A stretch of DNA of 64,000 bases, from sequence record PZ154896.1. The stretch is one strand, 5' to 3'. A program made the translations under genes and the position numbers. The stretch comes from a phage. A model generated the notes under the pieces. It made no database searches. It saw only the letters and a program-made list of their open reading frames with translations, and had not been told where the DNA came from. Shown here in pieces: positions 12,320-54,997 of the stretch. Each line of letters opens with the position of its first letter. The first letter of the stretch is position 1.

Positions 12320-12362
12320 ACCCTTACCTTAAATAGATAAGGGTATTTATAATTTAGTAAAC
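12320..12362 (-). promoter_or_regulatory. gene 49 promoter region: GTTTAC early-type element plus TATAAATA late promoter and inverted repeat
   Basis: rc: GTTTAC...TATAAATACCC; inverted repeat ACCCTTA/TAAGGGT; T4 gene 49 is known to have early and late promoters. Confidence 0.55.
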
Positions 12363-18449: not shown

Positions 18450-19451
18450 TTATTTCAGTAAAGTTACTTCAGAGATTTCCTCCCAACCATCTTTATCAGT
18501 TGAAATAAAATCTGCTACATAAAGAGCCGTACGTAATGATACATTGCGAAGACGAGATACGTTAGCCTTCATCCAGGACAATGCTTTATACGTTTCTGCA
18601 TCTGTCAGACCACGTTTCTGCATCATGTCAGTAGATAATATTACGTCTTCAACTCGAACCATAATCTCTTCATTAGAGTGTACTCCAAGGTCGAGATACA
18701 CTGAACGAGATACTAAAGCTTGAAGGTGTGGGGCAAGTTTCGAACCGCGTTCTAACTCTTTATCGATATCAACGTTTGTAATGAAAACGATAGTACCTTC
18801 AAACTCAAATTCTTTATCAATACCCTTATCATCGAGATAAGATGACGCAGTGCTCCAGCAAACTTTGCGTTTATCTCCAGTATCTAATGCTGCTTTAAGA
18901 AGGTTCAAGATGTCCATATCTGAGAATACGTCAACGTCGTCGATTAAGAGAACGCTGTCTGCATCACGGTTGAGCCAAAGTTGTTCGTAAAGGCCGATAC
19001 CAGAGATTTTACCATTAATGCTTTTATATTTGATGAAACCGTTATCATTAGCATTATTAAGTGCTTTATCCAGAGAATACGTCTTACCAATACCAGCTGC
19101 ACCTGAAATAATGAGTGAACGAATTTTACCATCGATAATGCCATTCGTCATCATGTTCATTACTTTAAAGCGTTTGTTGATACGAGTTTTCATATCTTCA
19201 GTGCTTTCAACGACTGCAACCGGTGACGTCTCAACTCCTTCCATTACGATGTCTGATTTGAAGACCCATACTCCACGTTCAGAACCATCAATCATAACGA
19301 AAATTTTACCATCACCTAAGTGGGAACATTCAGGATTAAGCTTTGCTGGGAACCATGTCTTTGTGGCAACATAAGAACCAGAGATTTCGTTATTACGATA
19401 GATACCTTTTTTGATTTGAACGTTGAACATTTTATTCTCCAATTTACTCAT
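18450..19451 (-). CDS. P-loop ATPase
   Basis: 333 aa; Walker A GAAGIGKT and Walker B LLIDDVD. Confidence 0.6.
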   Translation of the reverse strand: MSKLENKMFNVQIKKGIYRNNEISGSYVATKTWFPAKLNPECSHLGDGKIFVMIDGSERGVWVFKSDIVMEGVETSPVAVVESTEDMKTRINKRFKVMNMMTNGIIDGKIRSLIISGAAGIGKTYSLDKALNNANDNGFIKYKSINGKISGIGLYEQLWLNRDADSVLLIDDVDVFSDMDILNLLKAALDTGDKRKVCWSTASSYLDDKGIDKEFEFEGTIVFITNVDIDKELERGSKLAPHLQALVSRSVYLDLGVHSNEEIMVRVEDVILSTDMMQKRGLTDAETYKALSWMKANVSRLRNVSLRTALYVADFISTDKDGWEEISEVTLLK

Positions 19452-19499: not shown

Positions 19500-19718
19500 T
19501 TATTTGAGACGAGATTTTTTGGTAAGAGGTTGAAAGAACACTGCTTTACCGGCTGGGGTTAAGGTGACTCGTAATGCATTACCGATTCCTAAGGATGCTT
19601 TAACTAAACCTTTAGCTTTCAGTTCACCGAATGCTTGACGTTGGTCTGCATCACGAGTGTTAACCATAAGACCTTTATCACCTGCTTCACGAATCATTTC
19701 TAACATTTTGGTTTTCAT
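19500..19718 (-). CDS. hypothetical small protein
   Basis: start set at MKTKMLEMIRE downstream of promoter cassette. Confidence 0.4.
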   Translation of the reverse strand: MKTKMLEMIREAGDKGLMVNTRDADQRQAFGELKAKGLVKASLGIGNALRVTLTPAGKAVFFQPLTKKSRLK

Positions 19719-19738
19719 TTTGTTCTCCTCTTGTTTTG

Positions 19739-19775
19739 ATAGGTCTATAATAACATATCCTAAAAGCATGTACAC
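19739..19775 (-). promoter_or_regulatory. promoter cassette (early or MotA-type)
   Basis: rc: TGCTTTTA/GTACAT followed by TTATTATAGACCTATC. Confidence 0.45.
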
Positions 19776-19805
19776 TACTTTTTAAAAATATTTTAACCCC
19801 CTAAA

Positions 19806-19821
19806 GGGACCCGAAGGTCCC
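19806..19821 (-). other. UUCG-tetraloop hairpin just 3' of a stop codon
   Basis: GGGACC-UUCG-GGUCCC on minus strand, 5 nt after stop of 19827-20108; no U tract. Confidence 0.45.
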
Positions 19822-19826
19822 CACAT

Positions 19827-20108
19827 TTACTTATCGCACTTAGCAACATAATTAGGCATATCACAGAATACGGAGCGAGTAACTACTCGGCCCTTTGACC
19901 ATGCTTCAGTTGCTTGTCCGGCTGTGCTATTAATATAGCTTGATCTAATGTTCTCAATACCCTGAGAATGTGATGCGTTTACCGAACCATTAGAAGACCC
20001 AGAAGTCTGGTTACCACCAGCTCCTGTACTACCGCTGGCTGCACCCGTGGTAGCACCAACAGAGAATGCCATCATTACTGCGAATAAACCAATTACTAAT
20101 TTTTTCAT
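19827..20108 (-). CDS. small secreted Gly/Ser-rich protein
   Basis: 93 aa; N-terminal signal-peptide-like segment; two C-terminal Cys. Confidence 0.5.
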   Translation of the reverse strand: MKKLVIGLFAVMMAFSVGATTGAASGSTGAGGNQTSGSSNGSVNASHSQGIENIRSSYINSTAGQATEAWSKGRVVTRSVFCDMPNYVAKCDK

Positions 20109-20139
20109 ATTTACCTCAAGTTAATGGTTATTTATCTAC

Positions 20140-21129
20140 TTATTTATAGTAAGAATTATGATTTTCGAGATAGACTTGTTCAAGGAAGTCATCCCAGAAA
20201 CTCATATCTACTTTTTGTTGCATACCGTTCTTGGCAGCTTGTTCTGACGCATGTTCAACTTGGTCAACGATATCTTCTAGGAATTCTTGTACAGTTTTAA
20301 ACGTATGTTTACCAAGCTTAACATCGAGAATAAATGGAGCATCCTGAAGTGGGTAAACCAGGTCGCCTGTTTTGTAAATTTCCAATAATTGAAGTCCACC
20401 ACGACATGCATGACTCAATGCTTTCCAGTCAATACCTTCGTTAGCTTCTGCCTTACGAGCACGTTCACCATAGTTCTCTTCTAGTTTAACCAGGATGGCA
20501 TTGAACTCTTTATTGGTTAATGTGTCTTGGAATTTACGGTCCAACAGATTATAGAATGTTTGCTTACCTGTTTTCTCGTTTTCGGTTTCAACCCATGAAG
20601 CAAATTCACCTACAGGCAGAACATTCTTCATATGGGATAAACGAATTACTGCACCATTATCAAAGTATTGTCCCCATTCATTAGAACGTTTAAGGGCTTG
20701 ACGAAGAACAGCCAGTCGAGAACCCTTGACACCGTATTTAGAAGCTTGCTTACGGACATACCCTAAATAAGATTTCATGTTAGTGGTATAGAAACGAGAC
20801 CTGTTATCTTGAATATACTTCCATACATCAGGCAAATCAGATTTAACTACTAAACTTGGTGGAGTGTGAAGCATATCTAATGCGACGGTTTCACCATCCG
20901 CAGCTAGTTTAAAGAAATATTTGAGACTATACAACTCATGGTCCACGTCGTCTTTTGTGTTCTTAGAAGATGTGTTATTCGTGTTTTTGCTCATATGTTC
21001 TTTAACGTTACCGGTCAAAATATCACGAGCATGAGGGACATAAATTTCTTTAAAATCAACGTCAGATTCAGGAGTAGACGTTCCATAAAGGTGGCTACCA
21101 AAGTAAGCCTTAACAATCGTTTTCATCAT
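20140..21129 (-). CDS. Pol-beta-superfamily nucleotidyltransferase-fold protein
   Basis: 329 aa; N-terminal GSHLYGTSTPESDVDF matches GS-x(9-13)-DxD NTase motif. Confidence 0.5.
   Translation of the reverse strand: MMKTIVKAYFGSHLYGTSTPESDVDFKEIYVPHARDILTGNVKEHMSKNTNNTSSKNTKDDVDHELYSLKYFFKLAADGETVALDMLHTPPSLVVKSDLPDVWKYIQDNRSRFYTTNMKSYLGYVRKQASKYGVKGSRLAVLRQALKRSNEWGQYFDNGAVIRLSHMKNVLPVGEFASWVETENEKTGKQTFYNLLDRKFQDTLTNKEFNAILVKLEENYGERARKAEANEGIDWKALSHACRGGLQLLEIYKTGDLVYPLQDAPFILDVKLGKHTFKTVQEFLEDIVDQVEHASEQAAKNGMQQKVDMSFWDDFLEQVYLENHNSYYK
20141..20148 (-). promoter_or_regulatory. late promoter (TATAAATA)
   Basis: exact T4 late promoter octamer on minus strand, about 35 nt upstream of the 19827-20108 start. 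Confidence 0.5.
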
Positions 21130-21141
21130 TTAGCCTTATAT

Positions 21142-21600
21142 TCAAGAGTAGGACAGATTTTTTTCTTTACGAGCTTTAAGGTATTCACCTATTAATGATT
21201 TCTTACGTTCAATAGGCTCAAGTCCATTTTTAATTCGTTCTTGGTTTTGCGCAATGAGCTCAATTTCTTTATAATATTTTCTGTCGTTATATTTGTCTAA
21301 CAACCAAGACGGACCAATTACCAACCCGGTAGCAATAAAAGCCATGACTGCTACCATTAAAATGCCTACACCAATTGAGGCCGGAACTAATGTCCATAGA
21401 CTGCTAAAAACAAAGAATCTAGTTAAAATTTCCTGGCCAATGATTACGACTGCTGCTAAAATCGCAAATCCAATAATTGAAACAGACAATACTGGGATTA
21501 ACGTTTTCCAAAAATAAGCACACAACGTTTTCGGGCGATTCCATGTACTATTGAACGCGGCATAAATTTTAAAGTGCCAAGAGTTTTCATTGATAATCAT
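21142..21600 (-). CDS. membrane protein
   Basis: 152 aa with several hydrophobic segments. Confidence 0.45.
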   Translation of the reverse strand: MIINENSWHFKIYAAFNSTWNRPKTLCAYFWKTLIPVLSVSIIGFAILAAVVIIGQEILTRFFVFSSLWTLVPASIGVGILMVAVMAFIATGLVIGPSWLLDKYNDRKYYKEIELIAQNQERIKNGLEPIERKKSLIGEYLKARKEKNLSYS

Positions 21601-21609
21601 AATAATTCC

Positions 21610-22152
21610 TTATTTCAAAGTCGGGATAATAGAATCAAGATAAGCTTTAAGAGCAACTGCTTCATCTTTGTCTAATGTAACGATATGTTGACGAAGGTCA
21701 TCAATTTGACGAATAACTACGACATCACCATCTTCATAAGAAGGATTAACGCCTAGGACTGTTGTATAGTCAGGGCGGTCCTGACTTGTAATAAAAGCAT
21801 TACGGCATTTAGCCCATTGAAGTTTGGCCTTTTTGGCTGTTTCAGATTCCATGAATTCTTTCACTTTAGCGACGAATGTTTTCCAATTATTAATAGAAAA
21901 ACATTCGTCTTCAGTTTCGATATTAACCCCACTATAAAGTCCATGATAAAAACGAACTTGAAGGTCTTCACCAATGTTAATTACAGATGCATGTCCTGGT
22001 GGATTGAGTTTCAAAATCTTGTCCAGTTCCATAGGAAGAATAGTAGCAGCATCATCTTCTTGTGTCAGAACATACACATAACCACGTTTTTCGATACATA
22101 AATCACCAAACAACTCGGTTGTTTCAATTACAGTTTTCATATTATTCACCAA
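21610..22152 (-). CDS. hypothetical protein
   Basis: 180-aa ORF. Confidence 0.5.
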   Translation of the reverse strand: MVNNMKTVIETTELFGDLCIEKRGYVYVLTQEDDAATILPMELDKILKLNPPGHASVINIGEDLQVRFYHGLYSGVNIETEDECFSINNWKTFVAKVKEFMESETAKKAKLQWAKCRNAFITSQDRPDYTTVLGVNPSYEDGDVVVIRQIDDLRQHIVTLDKDEAVALKAYLDSIIPTLK

Positions 22153-23533: not shown

Positions 23534-23541
23534 ATTTATAA
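23534..23541 (-). promoter_or_regulatory. late promoter (TATAAATA)
   Basis: exact octamer on minus strand inside tk 3' end, upstream of rI.1/rI. Confidence 0.45.
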
Positions 23542-24117
23542 CAACCCTGTCAAATCGTTCCAATGCTTCCGGCATAATGACACATATCTATCGGTGTCAC
23601 CAATTTCAATTTGACTGCCATCTGTAATTGGAAGTCCGTCTTCCGTGACTCTAGCTACCATTGTGGCTTTTTTACCACAATGACAGACACCTTTAAGTTC
23701 AACAAGCTTATCGGCAATAGCCATTAATGCTTGAGAACCTTCAAATAGATTACCTTTAAAATCTGTTCGTAGTCCATATGCCATTACCGGCACATTGTAT
23801 ACGTCAACAATACGACTAAGTTGATACACCTTTTCAGTAGTTAAGAACTGAGCTTCGTCAACAAATACACAATGAATATCCTTTTGTGCTGCAGCCCATT
23901 TATAGAATTCAAAGATATCCATGTCTTTTGTAATTATATTGGCGTCCTGACGAATACCAATACGAGAGACTATTTCACCTTTTGAATCGCGAGTATCAAT
24001 AGCCGGTTTAAGAACTAATACACCCATGCCACGTTCTTTATAGTTATGGGCGGCAGTCAAAAGAGAAGCAGATTTTCCAGCATTCATTGCTGCATAAGTA
24101 AAAATTAAACTCGCCAT
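23536..24117 (-). CDS. tk: thymidine kinase
   Basis: 193 aa; P-loop AAMNAGKS; C-terminal zinc-binding Cys pairs; size identical to T4 Tk. Confidence 0.9.
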   Translation of the reverse strand: MASLIFTYAAMNAGKSASLLTAAHNYKERGMGVLVLKPAIDTRDSKGEIVSRIGIRQDANIITKDMDIFEFYKWAAAQKDIHCVFVDEAQFLTTEKVYQLSRIVDVYNVPVMAYGLRTDFKGNLFEGSQALMAIADKLVELKGVCHCGKKATMVARVTEDGLPITDGSQIEIGDTDRYVSLCRKHWNDLTGLL

Positions 24118-35117: not shown

Positions 35118-35126
35118 ATGATTTCC

Positions 35127-35399
35127 TTAGCAAGTGTGAGAAGATGCAATCCAACCACCAGTTTCGAGGCTCAGATTGTAGTCGTATTGGTAAACGTCAG
35201 CCCATTCAGCATAGCCGTTTTTTGTACAACGTTCAAGATCGGCTTTAAGATGTCCGGGTGAATGATAGGTTCCACCCATACCATAAGCTGGACACAAGTC
35301 GAATGTTGTGTTTTGTTTATCAGCAATTTCTTTGGCAGCCTCAATAGCTGCATAGATTTTTGCTACAGCTTCAGCCAGTTCGGTTTGTTCTTTAGACAT
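35127..35399 (-). CDS. small protein, WxSSxxC-tail family member 2
   Basis: 90 aa; ends ...GGWIASSHTC. Confidence 0.5.
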   Translation of the reverse strand: MSKEQTELAEAVAKIYAAIEAAKEIADKQNTTFDLCPAYGMGGTYHSPGHLKADLERCTKNGYAEWADVYQYDYNLSLETGGWIASSHTC

Positions 35400-35408
35400 A
35401 GTGATTCC

Positions 35409-35714
35409 TTAGCACAACGCAGAAGACGAAACCCAAGCACCTTCAGTAATAACGTAACCATTACCTTCACGCTTAACATCGCCACCATTATTTTCAATTT
35501 CATTTTTCATCCACTGGGATACGATTTCACCCTTAGGATAATAAGTACGACCGCTACCATAATCACCTACAGAAAATGATACGGCGTATTGGTCTGCGAT
35601 CTTTGTTGCTTCTTCTTCGATACGTTCAGCTTGATTCAGAAGTTTATAAATTGCATCTGAAGCGGATTTGGCATCATTAAACTCTGGTACTTTAATTTCA
35701 ATAATCTTACTCAT
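35409..35714 (-). CDS. small protein, WxSSxxC-tail family member 3
   Basis: 101 aa; ends ...GAWVSSSALC. Confidence 0.5.
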   Translation of the reverse strand: MSKIIEIKVPEFNDAKSASDAIYKLLNQAERIEEEATKIADQYAVSFSVGDYGSGRTYYPKGEIVSQWMKNEIENNGGDVKREGNGYVITEGAWVSSSALC

Positions 35715-36070
35715 TTTCTACATTCCTTAATAAAGTTTTCTATTGTTTCATTTTCACGTCTAGCTAGGAGTTCATTATAACTAATCATTTGAGAAGCGTA
35801 AACCTTTTTATTTTTCTTGTTATGGTTTATAAAATCGTAGTAAAAATAGACTACAGTACAAAATGATGCGATGGATGCAAAGGCTTGGGTATACCGTAAG
35901 TCCTGCCATTGGTCTGTGAATCCACCAGTGTTCCCTATAAATCCTAACACAACGCCGTCAATAAGAAATCCAACTAATCCAAAGGCAAATCCCATGCCAA
36001 TACTCATAATAAAAATTAGAATGTTCTCACCAAGAGAAGGCCATACGGTTAAGAGTTGAGGCTTTTGCAT
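35711..36070 (-). CDS. membrane protein with C-terminal ENFIKECRK tail
   Basis: 119 aa; hydrophobic segments; stop overlaps next start (ATGA). Confidence 0.5.
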   Translation of the reverse strand: MQKPQLLTVWPSLGENILIFIMSIGMGFAFGLVGFLIDGVVLGFIGNTGGFTDQWQDLRYTQAFASIASFCTVVYFYYDFINHNKKNKKVYASQMISYNELLARRENETIENFIKECRK

Positions 36071-36444
36071 CTTATTTCCTTAACGAATTCCATAGCTTCT
36101 TCATATTCATACTTTTTAACAGCTTCATCATACTGAGCTTGGGCTTTTGCGCACTGAACTTTCCATTCTCTTAATCGGGCTCTGTGATGACGTCCTTGGT
36201 ACCAATATCCCACCCAGTTAATAGGCATTAATAAAAATGGTACAATAAACGACCCGGCTATAATAAGTAAAAACACTGCATCAGACGATATAACTTCACT
36301 AGAATCTAAAACAGCTCCTATAATCATAAAGATTAAAAATGCTAAAGCTAAAATAGGGCCAAATAGTACTTCATTTGGGATTAATTTACGCTTGTATTCG
36401 TATGCCCAGGGCTTAATTGGCATGTACAGGGTTGGCTTTGACAT
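36049..36444 (-). CDS. membrane protein with EFVKEIRCK tail variant
   Basis: start set at MSKPTLY; two TM-like segments. Confidence 0.45.
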   Translation of the reverse strand: MSKPTLYMPIKPWAYEYKRKLIPNEVLFGPILALAFLIFMIIGAVLDSSEVISSDAVFLLIIAGSFIVPFLLMPINWVGYWYQGRHHRARLREWKVQCAKAQAQYDEAVKKYEYEEAMEFVKEIRCKSLNS

Positions 36445-40199: not shown

Positions 40200-40276
<77 letters not shown>

Positions 40277-40279
40277 GAT

Positions 40280-40354
40280 TGGTGACCCTGGCTGGTTTCG
40301 ATCCAGCTACCTATCAGTTATGAGCTGACAGCTCTCCCATTGAGCTACAGGGCC
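40280..40354 (-). tRNA. tRNA-Met/Ile (anticodon CAT)
   Basis: hand-folded cloverleaf: acceptor GGCCCTG/CAGGGTC, D-arm GCTCAATGGGAGAGC, anticodon loop CTCATAA, encoded CCA; 3 nt from tRNA-Arg. Confidence 0.7.
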
Positions 40355-45701: not shown

Positions 45702-45710
45702 GTCCTCCTT

Positions 45711-54989: not shown

Positions 54990-54997
54990 TATAAATA
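54990..54997 (+). promoter_or_regulatory. late promoter (TATAAATA) for gene 9
   Basis: exact octamer immediately after the terminator, about 35 nt upstream of gene 9 ATG. Confidence 0.6.

Follow-up and report, generated by a model that had tools for sequence, protein, structure and literature searches.

The polynucleotide kinase and RNA ligase 1 of phage T4 (Pnk/Rnl1) were the first RNA repair pathway to be discovered and counter the anticodon nuclease PrrC; the loss of a nucleotide to nucleases of the RloC type is a form of damage that simple religation does not undo. We report a computational analysis of one gene in a 64,000-nucleotide stretch of phage DNA (sequence record PZ154896.1; the whole stretch is called 'the window' below). 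The gene is an open reading frame (ORF) at 20140..21129 on the minus strand and, judged by its sequence and gene order, is the Mosigvirus ortholog of the T4-type gene nrdC.11. Its product is best explained as a template-independent nucleotidyltransferase (NTase) of the Pol-beta superfamily and the RlaP family (PF10127), and we put at somewhat over one half (roughly 0.55) the probability that this enzyme extends the damaged 3'-OH of an RNA by 1-2 nt so that the Pnk and Rnl enzymes of the phage can reseal a tRNA of normal length. The gene is of an ordinary and already known kind: it has a name in T4 and a RefSeq annotation as a nucleotidyltransferase, both Pfam and PHROGs contain it, and the literature discusses it and its predicted role; its repair role in the phage is what we infer.

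The closest biochemically described enzymes are the RlaPs of P. fluorescens (PfRlaP) and P. aeruginosa (PaRlaP), which are encoded between rtcB and rtcA and were studied by Carruthers, Fatma and Huang (bioRxiv, December 2025; PMC12776372). The family name goes back to Burroughs and Aravind (2016), as that work is cited in PMC12776372 and PMC7824862. When offered the macromolecules of E. coli, PfRlaP and PaRlaP label RNA alone and do not act on DNA or protein; they add one or two nucleoside monophosphates (NMPs), or their deoxy counterparts (dNMPs), to the RNA 3'-OH with little specificity for the nucleoside triphosphate (NTP), prefer Mn2+ or Co2+ as the metal, and, given a mimic of a nicked tRNA, favour its 5' half (PMC12776372). 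Acting before ligation, RlaP partly restores the aminoacylation of a tRNA-Asp that is missing one nucleotide of the anticodon loop, and its crystal structure consists of an N-terminal NTase domain and a C-terminal helical domain with a cleft between them (PMC12776372). RlaP has been proposed as an antidote to 'smart' ribotoxins, such as RloC, that excise a nucleotide after the cut, with T4 NrdC.11 named as a member of the family in cluster 5 of the sequence similarity network (SSN) (PMC12776372), and Iyer et al. (2021) made the same prediction for phage RlaPs (PMC7824862).

The assignment of the gene to nrdC.11 rests on identity and synteny together. The region of the window is 97-98% identical to genomes of Mosigvirus (RB69-like Tevenvirinae), for example those of Shigella phage phi25-307 and Escherichia phage AV112, and many Mosigvirus entries in the databases share 99-100% identity with the encoded protein. 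Compared with nrdC.11 (synonym tk.-11) of the Tequatrovirus RB51, the product of which is annotated as 'nucleotidyltransferase', the identity is 78%, and the gene order of RB51 is kept, with nrdC.10 downstream and mobD, rI and tk upstream. By tblastn, 1547 phage records contain a homolog of nrdC.11; they span essentially the whole of the T4-like phages and are mainly from phages of Escherichia, Klebsiella, Shigella, Aeromonas, Acinetobacter and Vibrio. A second RlaP-like gene was looked for in the window and none was found. Many GenBank and UniRef entries for this protein (phages FL18, ZQ3, AV110 and mobillu, for example) carry the label 'thioredoxin'; we rejected that label because Pfam gives no thioredoxin family match, and we regard it as spill-over from the gene name nrdC.11. 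A preliminary description of this DNA, made from its letters, had placed here a 329-aa ORF with the N-terminus MMKTIVKAYFGSHLYGTSTPESDVDFKEIYV. The ORF list and the translation bear this out, with an ATG start and with the stop codon included in the interval, and add that the gene lies on the minus strand, which the preliminary description had missed: read on the plus strand, 20140..21129 has stops throughout.

Membership of the family is carried by profiles. The sole Pfam match of the protein is to PF10127 (RlaP, described as 'RNA ligase-associating Pol-beta' or 'RNA repair pathway DNA polymerase beta family'), which scores 49.2 bits, above the gathering cut-off of 23, with E=7e-13; as this is the only family that Pfam gives, the protein does not fall into the class of CCA-adding enzymes and poly(A) polymerases (PAPs). 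The match covers residues 7-152 (20674..21111, minus strand), a stretch in which the NTase core of Pol-beta type and the helices next to it are contained, and positions 23-148 of the 249 in the Pfam model. The whole length of the protein matches PHROG 388 'nucleotidyltransferase' (E=5e-126), and an exhaustive HMMER search over 1.84 billion cluster representatives returned 3247 clusters (50% identity) at E<=1e-3, 750 of them at E<=1e-30, nearly all matching at full length and measuring 300-350 aa. NCBIfam and PADLOC yielded no match for the NTase, for the NrdC.10-like ATPase or for a canonical short RlaP. The preliminary description had started from the motif GS-x(9-13)-Dh[DE], which is indeed present; taken alone the motif is weak, however, since the regular expression GS.{9,13}D.[DE] occurs in 4 of the window's 375 open stretches that measure 50 aa or more. 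The NTase call is secure because of the profile evidence (PF10127, PHROG 388 and the 3247 clusters) and not because of the short motif, and this evidence supports sharpening what had been a superfamily call to a named T4 gene, nrdC.11, and a named family.

Conservation was read from an alignment of 122 diverse homologs with 34-52% identity to the query, of which 121 also match PF10127. The superfamily motif hG[GS] followed by [DE]h[DE]h is found as G11-S12, which is the NTase fold's 'GS' motif (21094..21099; minus strand, like the intervals that follow), and then D23-V-D25 (21055..21063), the first two catalytic carboxylates, which are 99% conserved and stand at the start of modelled strand 24-31. 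A third carboxylate lies on the neighbouring strand 62-68 within D61-V-D63 (20941..20949; D61 is 95% and D63 97% conserved), which is preceded by a clade-specific K56-N57-T loop; D63 is probably the third catalytic residue. D85 (20875..20877) is 98% conserved. Five residues are invariant (G11, S12, Y132, R243 and G273), the acidic residues D23, D25, D61, D63 and D85 each reach at least 95%, and about 35 positions besides the acidic ones are at least 90% conserved. The residues at or above that level include D23, D25, K27, N57, D61, D63, D85, Y124, Q128, K131 and R138 in the N-terminal part and Y220, G221, R223, D234, W235, K236, S239, H240, P260 and K271 in the C-terminal part. Because the acidic residues and some 35 others are held at this level, the NrdC.11-type enzyme is probably catalytically intact and active. 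We considered and rejected the reading as a pseudo-enzyme, since all the catalytic residues are at least 95% conserved in homologs as diverged as these; loss of the acidic triad, which the preliminary description had proposed as a check on itself, is not seen, D23, D25 and D63 all being retained.

The second check proposed there, structure prediction followed by Foldseek, also favours the NTase assignment. An AlphaFold2 model computed with the homolog alignment as input (mean predicted local distance difference test (pLDDT) score 94.3, predicted template modelling (pTM) score 0.86) begins with an alpha/beta domain of strands 3-10, 24-31, 45-49 and 62-68, in which the GS motif precedes helix 12-15, and continues with a helical region, an insert of three beta strands (residues 177-201) and a C-terminal helical bundle; the alpha-beta, palm-like NTase fold is present in this model. 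The best Foldseek matches are to kanamycin NTase (1kny/6un8, with an E-value near 2e-3), to 3c18, an NTase-like protein, and to the Hailong protein HalB (9dbj/9dbh), and the significant matches to solved structures (1kny, 6un8, 3c18, 9dbh/9dbj and 3jyy) are all Pol-beta-fold NTases, with modest scores. No CCA-adding enzyme or poly(A) polymerase is among the top structural matches, except Cid1 at a probability of 0.11. In BFVD, a collection of predicted viral structures, many 'nucleotidyltransferases' of phages and giant viruses match over about 320 columns with TMq values of up to 0.76. Sequence searches of the PDB gave no match with either the single protein or the 122-sequence profile, and the PfRlaP structure was likewise not detected by them. 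The preliminary description's central proposal, a Pol-beta-type NTase-fold protein in the block between nrdC and rI, thus stands on the family profiles, the model and its matches to solved structures, the conservation of the acidic residues and the profile alignment to RlaP that follows.

For that alignment, 16 short RlaPs, each a full-length match to PF10127 (for example, E=6e-81), were taken as the canonical set, and their profile was compared with that of the NrdC.11 clade. With hhalign the two profiles align at a probability of 93.7% over residues 1-131, that is, only about the first 135. In this alignment G11-S12 fall on the ESGSRAWG motif of canonical RlaP, and four acidic residues fall on invariant ones: D23/D25 on D39/D41, D63 on D72 and D85 on E94. 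When the C-terminal halves are compared alone, the best local pairing is K236-x6-R243 with K149-x6-R156, which at E=0.06 is not significant. In the Foldseek search of BFVD, canonical-length phage NTases align over about 320 columns at TMq 0.4-0.6, which suggests a shared domain plan. Residues 160-205 form a poorly conserved beta-hairpin subdomain (20515..20652, minus strand; model strands 177-184, 188-195 and 198-201) that sits before the C-terminal helices and has no aligned counterpart in canonical RlaP of about 250 aa. The C-terminal helical domain itself, residues 206-329 (20143..20514, minus strand), bears the signature of the clade, Y220-G-x-R223, D234-W-K-A-x-S-H-A-x-R243, P260 and K271-x-G273, and these residues probably line the cleft for NTP and RNA. 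By these comparisons NrdC.11 scores above the curated threshold of the family yet stands in a 'long' subfamily of its own, the C-terminal domain of which has diverged; this agrees with its separate position in SSN cluster 5 (PMC12776372).

The genomic company kept by its cellular members shows directly that an association with RNA ligases holds for the NrdC.11 clade in its own right, beyond PF10127 in general. A scan of 185,579 species genomes for the signature DWKAxSHAxR led to 80 bacterial and archaeal loci, the products of which are 33-52% identical to the query; their neighbouring ORFs were clustered and checked against Pfam, and hidden Markov models built from the clusters were used for the locus counts. 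The recurring neighbours, confirmed by Pfam, are RtcB, Pnkp, Hen1, Ro60 (TROVE/vWA) and T4-type Pnk, that is, RNA ligases and end-healing enzymes among them, and the bacterial Pnkp combines a P-loop kinase domain with a metallophosphatase domain and an RNA ligase domain of T4 type. At least one repair gene lies within 6 kb in 13 of the 49 loci that have at least 3 kb of flanking sequence on both sides. In 18 of the 71 loci with enough downstream sequence, the very next gene on the same strand encodes a canonical short RlaP and often overlaps the stop codon of the long one, and at one locus (L031, 1558-13383) the order is Ro60, RtcB, long RlaP, short RlaP, Hen1 and, further on, Pnkp. Neither NrdC.10 nor the other neighbours of the gene in the window have homologs in the 80 bacterial loci. 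The tandem of long and short RlaP recurs at L056, L079, L066, L037, L025 and other loci, within operons containing Pnkp and Hen1 or RtcB and Ro60.

On the phage side, the genome of phi25-307, which is 97.7% identical, encodes RNA ligase 2 (rnlB, 90228-91226), polynucleotide kinase (pseT, 115808-116707) and RNA ligase 1/gp63 (rnlA, 118661-119785), which lie 55-85 kb from its nrdC.11 (35121-36107), so that the window itself shows no operon linkage of this kind. Because a phage so nearly identical to ours encodes all three, the healing and sealing partners are taken to be present in trans. The proposed sequence of events is as follows. NrdC.11 would be made from early or middle transcripts along with the accessory genes upstream of it; two metal ions would be held by D23, D25 and D63, and one or two NMPs would be transferred from NTPs to the 3'-OH of a broken RNA. 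The main substrate would probably be the 5' half of a tRNA in which a host anticodon nuclease of the RloC type had first cut the anticodon loop and afterwards trimmed it. PseT, together with Rnl1 and Rnl2, encoded elsewhere in the genome, would next heal the ends and seal them into a loop of normal length, and with a fraction of the functional tRNA restored in this way, late translation could go on. The analysis establishes which gene this is, its family and fold, the conservation of its active site, the RNA-repair neighbours of bacterial clade members and the kinase and ligase genes of phi25-307; the addition of NMPs to RNA 3' ends by the NrdC.11 clade, the tRNA substrate and the role in counter-defence are inferred. 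Of the activities suggested by the preliminary description, the modification of nucleic acids fits the RNA 3'-end addition described for RlaP; the making or destroying of nucleotide signals finds no support beyond a generic similarity of fold.

Deletion of the segment from nrdC.11 to mobD.3 leaves T4 viable (PMC9825161), and such dispensability is what one would expect of a conditional counter-defence gene. An Escherichia phage T4 record, OL964745.1 (159,752 bp), keeps only about the last 40 codons of nrdC.11 (12% coverage), and this partial gene matches the nrdC.11-mobD.3 segment deletable in genome-reduced T4. Were NrdC.11 to restore the lost nucleotide, the phage side of the arms race with RloC would be complete, and the retention by nearly all T4-like phages of a gene that is dispensable in the laboratory would be explained; both the counter-defence hypothesis against RloC, with existing T4 genetics, and the long/short tandem are directly testable.

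Several observations weigh against the repair reading. The activity of RlaP was measured in two Pseudomonas enzymes that belong to another sequence cluster (1a as opposed to 5), and the significant alignment of NrdC.11 with canonical RlaP is limited to the N-terminal 135 residues or so; as the C-terminal halves show no significant alignment, the choice of substrate could differ. About half of the bacterial loci have no recognised repair neighbour, and long and short RlaP often form a tandem pair in bacteria, which argues against functional redundancy of the two. In T4-like phages nrdC.11 is not adjacent to pseT, rnlA or rnlB, and in the distant T4-like phages Aeh1 and VH7D none of its neighbours is conserved, unrelated small ORFs lying in their place. 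A functional module of NrdC.11 with NrdC.10 was dropped for the same want of conserved linkage in Aeh1 and VH7D.

Among the alternatives, the one that survives best is repair at the other end of the tRNA, in which 1-2 nt of a trimmed 3' CCA end would be rebuilt on host or phage tRNAs. RlaPs add 1-2 NMPs to any RNA 3'-OH and labelled full-length tRNAs in total RNA (PMC12776372); moreover, T4-like phages carry tRNAs of their own, two of which, adjacent genes for tRNA-Arg(TCT) and tRNA-Met(CAT), lie in the window at 40200-40354 (minus strand), and no CCA-adding enzyme was seen in the window. PfRlaP, however, preferred the 5' half of the nicked tRNA mimic over the 3' acceptor end (PMC12776372), and the ligases, Pnkp and Hen1 that adjoin the bacterial members of the clade act on internal breaks. 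Both of the window's tRNA genes, furthermore, encode their CCA end. Deutscher, Foulds and McClain are reported to have found in 1974 that maturation of T4 tRNA depends on the host cca gene, so that the phage would not provide this function, and we counted that too against rebuilding of the acceptor end. We regard this explanation as unlikely.

Slightly less probable is an offensive use of the same chemistry, by which the 3' ends of host tRNA, mRNA or small RNA (sRNA) would be extended, and so disabled or destabilised, in the manner of MenT/AbiEii, as an aid to host shut-off. The superfamily chemistry is indeed shared with the NTase toxins of the MenT/AbiEii type, the gene lies among accessory genes for host takeover, and RlaP acting on simply nicked tRNA shrinks the pool of active tRNA, as its authors discuss (PMC12776372). 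The cellular members of the clade are, however, found in repair operons and not in toxin-antitoxin pairs, the defence and toxin models of PADLOC do not match, the gene is dispensable in T4 and toxicity was not reported in the literature found, so that we think such tailing quite improbable. The precedents of kanamycin and lincosamide NTases, and of MNT proteins that AMPylate their HEPN partners, would allow for a small molecule or a protein in place of RNA as the acceptor. That reading we consider very unlikely: the structural matches are weak and at the level of the superfamily (8-11% identity, TM about 0.3), the profiles place the protein in RlaP and not in the ANT or MNT families, canonical RlaPs left proteins unlabelled (PMC12776372), and it is with enzymes of RNA ends that the clade is associated in genomes. 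Synthesis of a signal or decoy made of a nucleotide or oligonucleotide, of the cGAS/DncV kind, or of a HalB-like, protein-primed oligo(dA) that keeps a Hailong-type channel closed, is highly improbable, since the similarity to HalB is confined to the generic NTase core, neither CD-NTase profiles nor PADLOC match the protein, the gene has no linked partner that would act as effector or receptor, and membership of PF10127 and the repair-operon context point elsewhere.

Within the repair reading, the relation between the long and the short enzymes deserves comment. Their tandem arrangement in bacteria suggests two non-redundant NTases of one repair pathway. A more speculative extension, to which we give the status of a tentative and rather doubtful idea, is that the 'long' NrdC.11 clade is a functionally distinct partner of canonical RlaP and that T4-like phages kept only this specialised half, as a counter to RloC-type nucleases. 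Behind it stand the position upstream of short RlaP in repair operons, the invariant C-terminal signature and the beta-hairpin insert. The specificity of the long form, beyond that of the promiscuous short enzyme, could lie in recognising the trimmed anticodon stem-loop or in choosing the nucleotide; it could equally lie in limiting the addition to exactly one residue or in producing an end that RtcB can use. If true, the idea would add a third component to the classic Pnk-Rnl1 pathway of tRNA repair in T4.

The start and the surroundings of the gene complete the description of the locus. In RefSeq relatives translation begins at the second Met (ATG at 21126), which gives 328 aa; a Shine-Dalgarno-like AAGG, read from the sequence at 21134..21137 (minus strand), precedes the first ATG by 4 nt and the second by 7 nt and is compatible with either start. 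The stop of the upstream gene, which encodes a membrane protein (21142-21600), is 12 nt from the NTase ORF, and because this spacing is so short the NTase gene and its upstream neighbours are probably co-transcribed. Further upstream, a 180-aa ORF (21610-22152, minus strand; TTG start according to the ORF finder) matches T4_y05I_N (E=9e-40) and T4_y05I_C (4e-19), 'y05I-like putative transcription factor'. The gene lies, as the preliminary description had it, in the block from nrdC to rI/tk, in which tk occupies 23536-24117 and which is syntenic with nrdC.10/nrdC.11 of RB51. That description had also put it next to a late-promoted secreted protein, and this is correct: the next gene downstream is a 93-aa ORF (19827-20108, minus strand) with a signal-peptide-like N-terminus and a Gly/Ser-rich region, preceded by an octamer of the T4 late-promoter consensus, TATAAATA.

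This octamer (20141..20148, minus strand) overlaps the end of the NTase gene, both its final codons and its stop, is not part of the enzyme and lies 32 nt upstream of the 93-aa ORF. The octamer is not enriched in the window, with 9 occurrences against 8.1 expected from shuffled sequence; the sites are at 12344, 20141, 23533, 29329, 39496, 43300, 45710, 45725 and 54990. Most copies are on the strand of the local long ORFs (six on the minus strand between 12.3 and 43.3 kb, and the copy at 54990 on the plus strand), and the pair at 45710(+) and 45725(-) coincides with a strand switch of the long ORFs. The 93-aa ORF matches PHROG 2243, together with a sub-threshold Pfam match to a YbgS-like family, and 3' of it lies a GC hairpin with a TTCG loop, so that octamer, ORF and hairpin make up a compact cassette at 19795-20148 (minus strand) directly after the NTase gene. 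A second small ORF, of 91 aa (19500-19775), also stands between nrdC.11 and nrdC.10; both it and the cassette are absent from this position in RB51, and several relatives cover just 89% of the region, as two pieces. The NrdC.10-like protein beyond them (333 aa, 18450-19451, minus strand) has the Walker A motif GAAGIGKT and matches PHROG 1250, of unknown function, its AAA/STAND matches in Pfam all being sub-threshold.

The protein can be set beside several known systems. Kanamycin nucleotidyltransferase ANT(4') (1kny) and the structural-genomics entry 3c18 have in common with it a Pol-beta NTase domain followed by a helical domain. HalB of the Hailong system (9dbh/9dbj) is a tyrosine-primed oligo(dA) synthase of about 217 aa that is paired with the channel HalA; NrdC.11 differs from it in lacking a HalA-like partner and a PADLOC match and in belonging to another Pfam family. 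With canonical RlaP of P. fluorescens and P. aeruginosa it shares the Pfam family, the motifs GS and DxD, a third Asp with the acidic residue after it, the plan of an NTase domain and a helical domain, and the cellular association with genes for RNA ligase, Pnkp, Hen1, RtcB and Ro60. NrdC.11 is, however, about 75 residues longer, has the K-N-T loop before the third Asp and the beta-hairpin insert at about 160-205, and, unlike canonical RlaP, carries the signature DWKAxSHAxR in its C-terminal domain; it falls in SSN cluster 5, whereas the characterised RlaPs are in cluster 1a (PMC12776372), and its bacterial counterparts often occur together with canonical RlaP and not in its place. The nearest relatives are T4 NrdC.11 (tk.-11; 'uncharacterized 38.9 kDa protein in nrdC-mobD intergenic region') together with the orthologs of it in Straboviridae, which are equally long and likewise lie upstream of nrdC.10 in the nrdC-tk block. 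RB51 has nothing between the two genes, whereas here the 93-aa and 91-aa ORFs split nrdC.11 from nrdC.10; in all essentials the protein is the same as T4 NrdC.11 and its orthologs.

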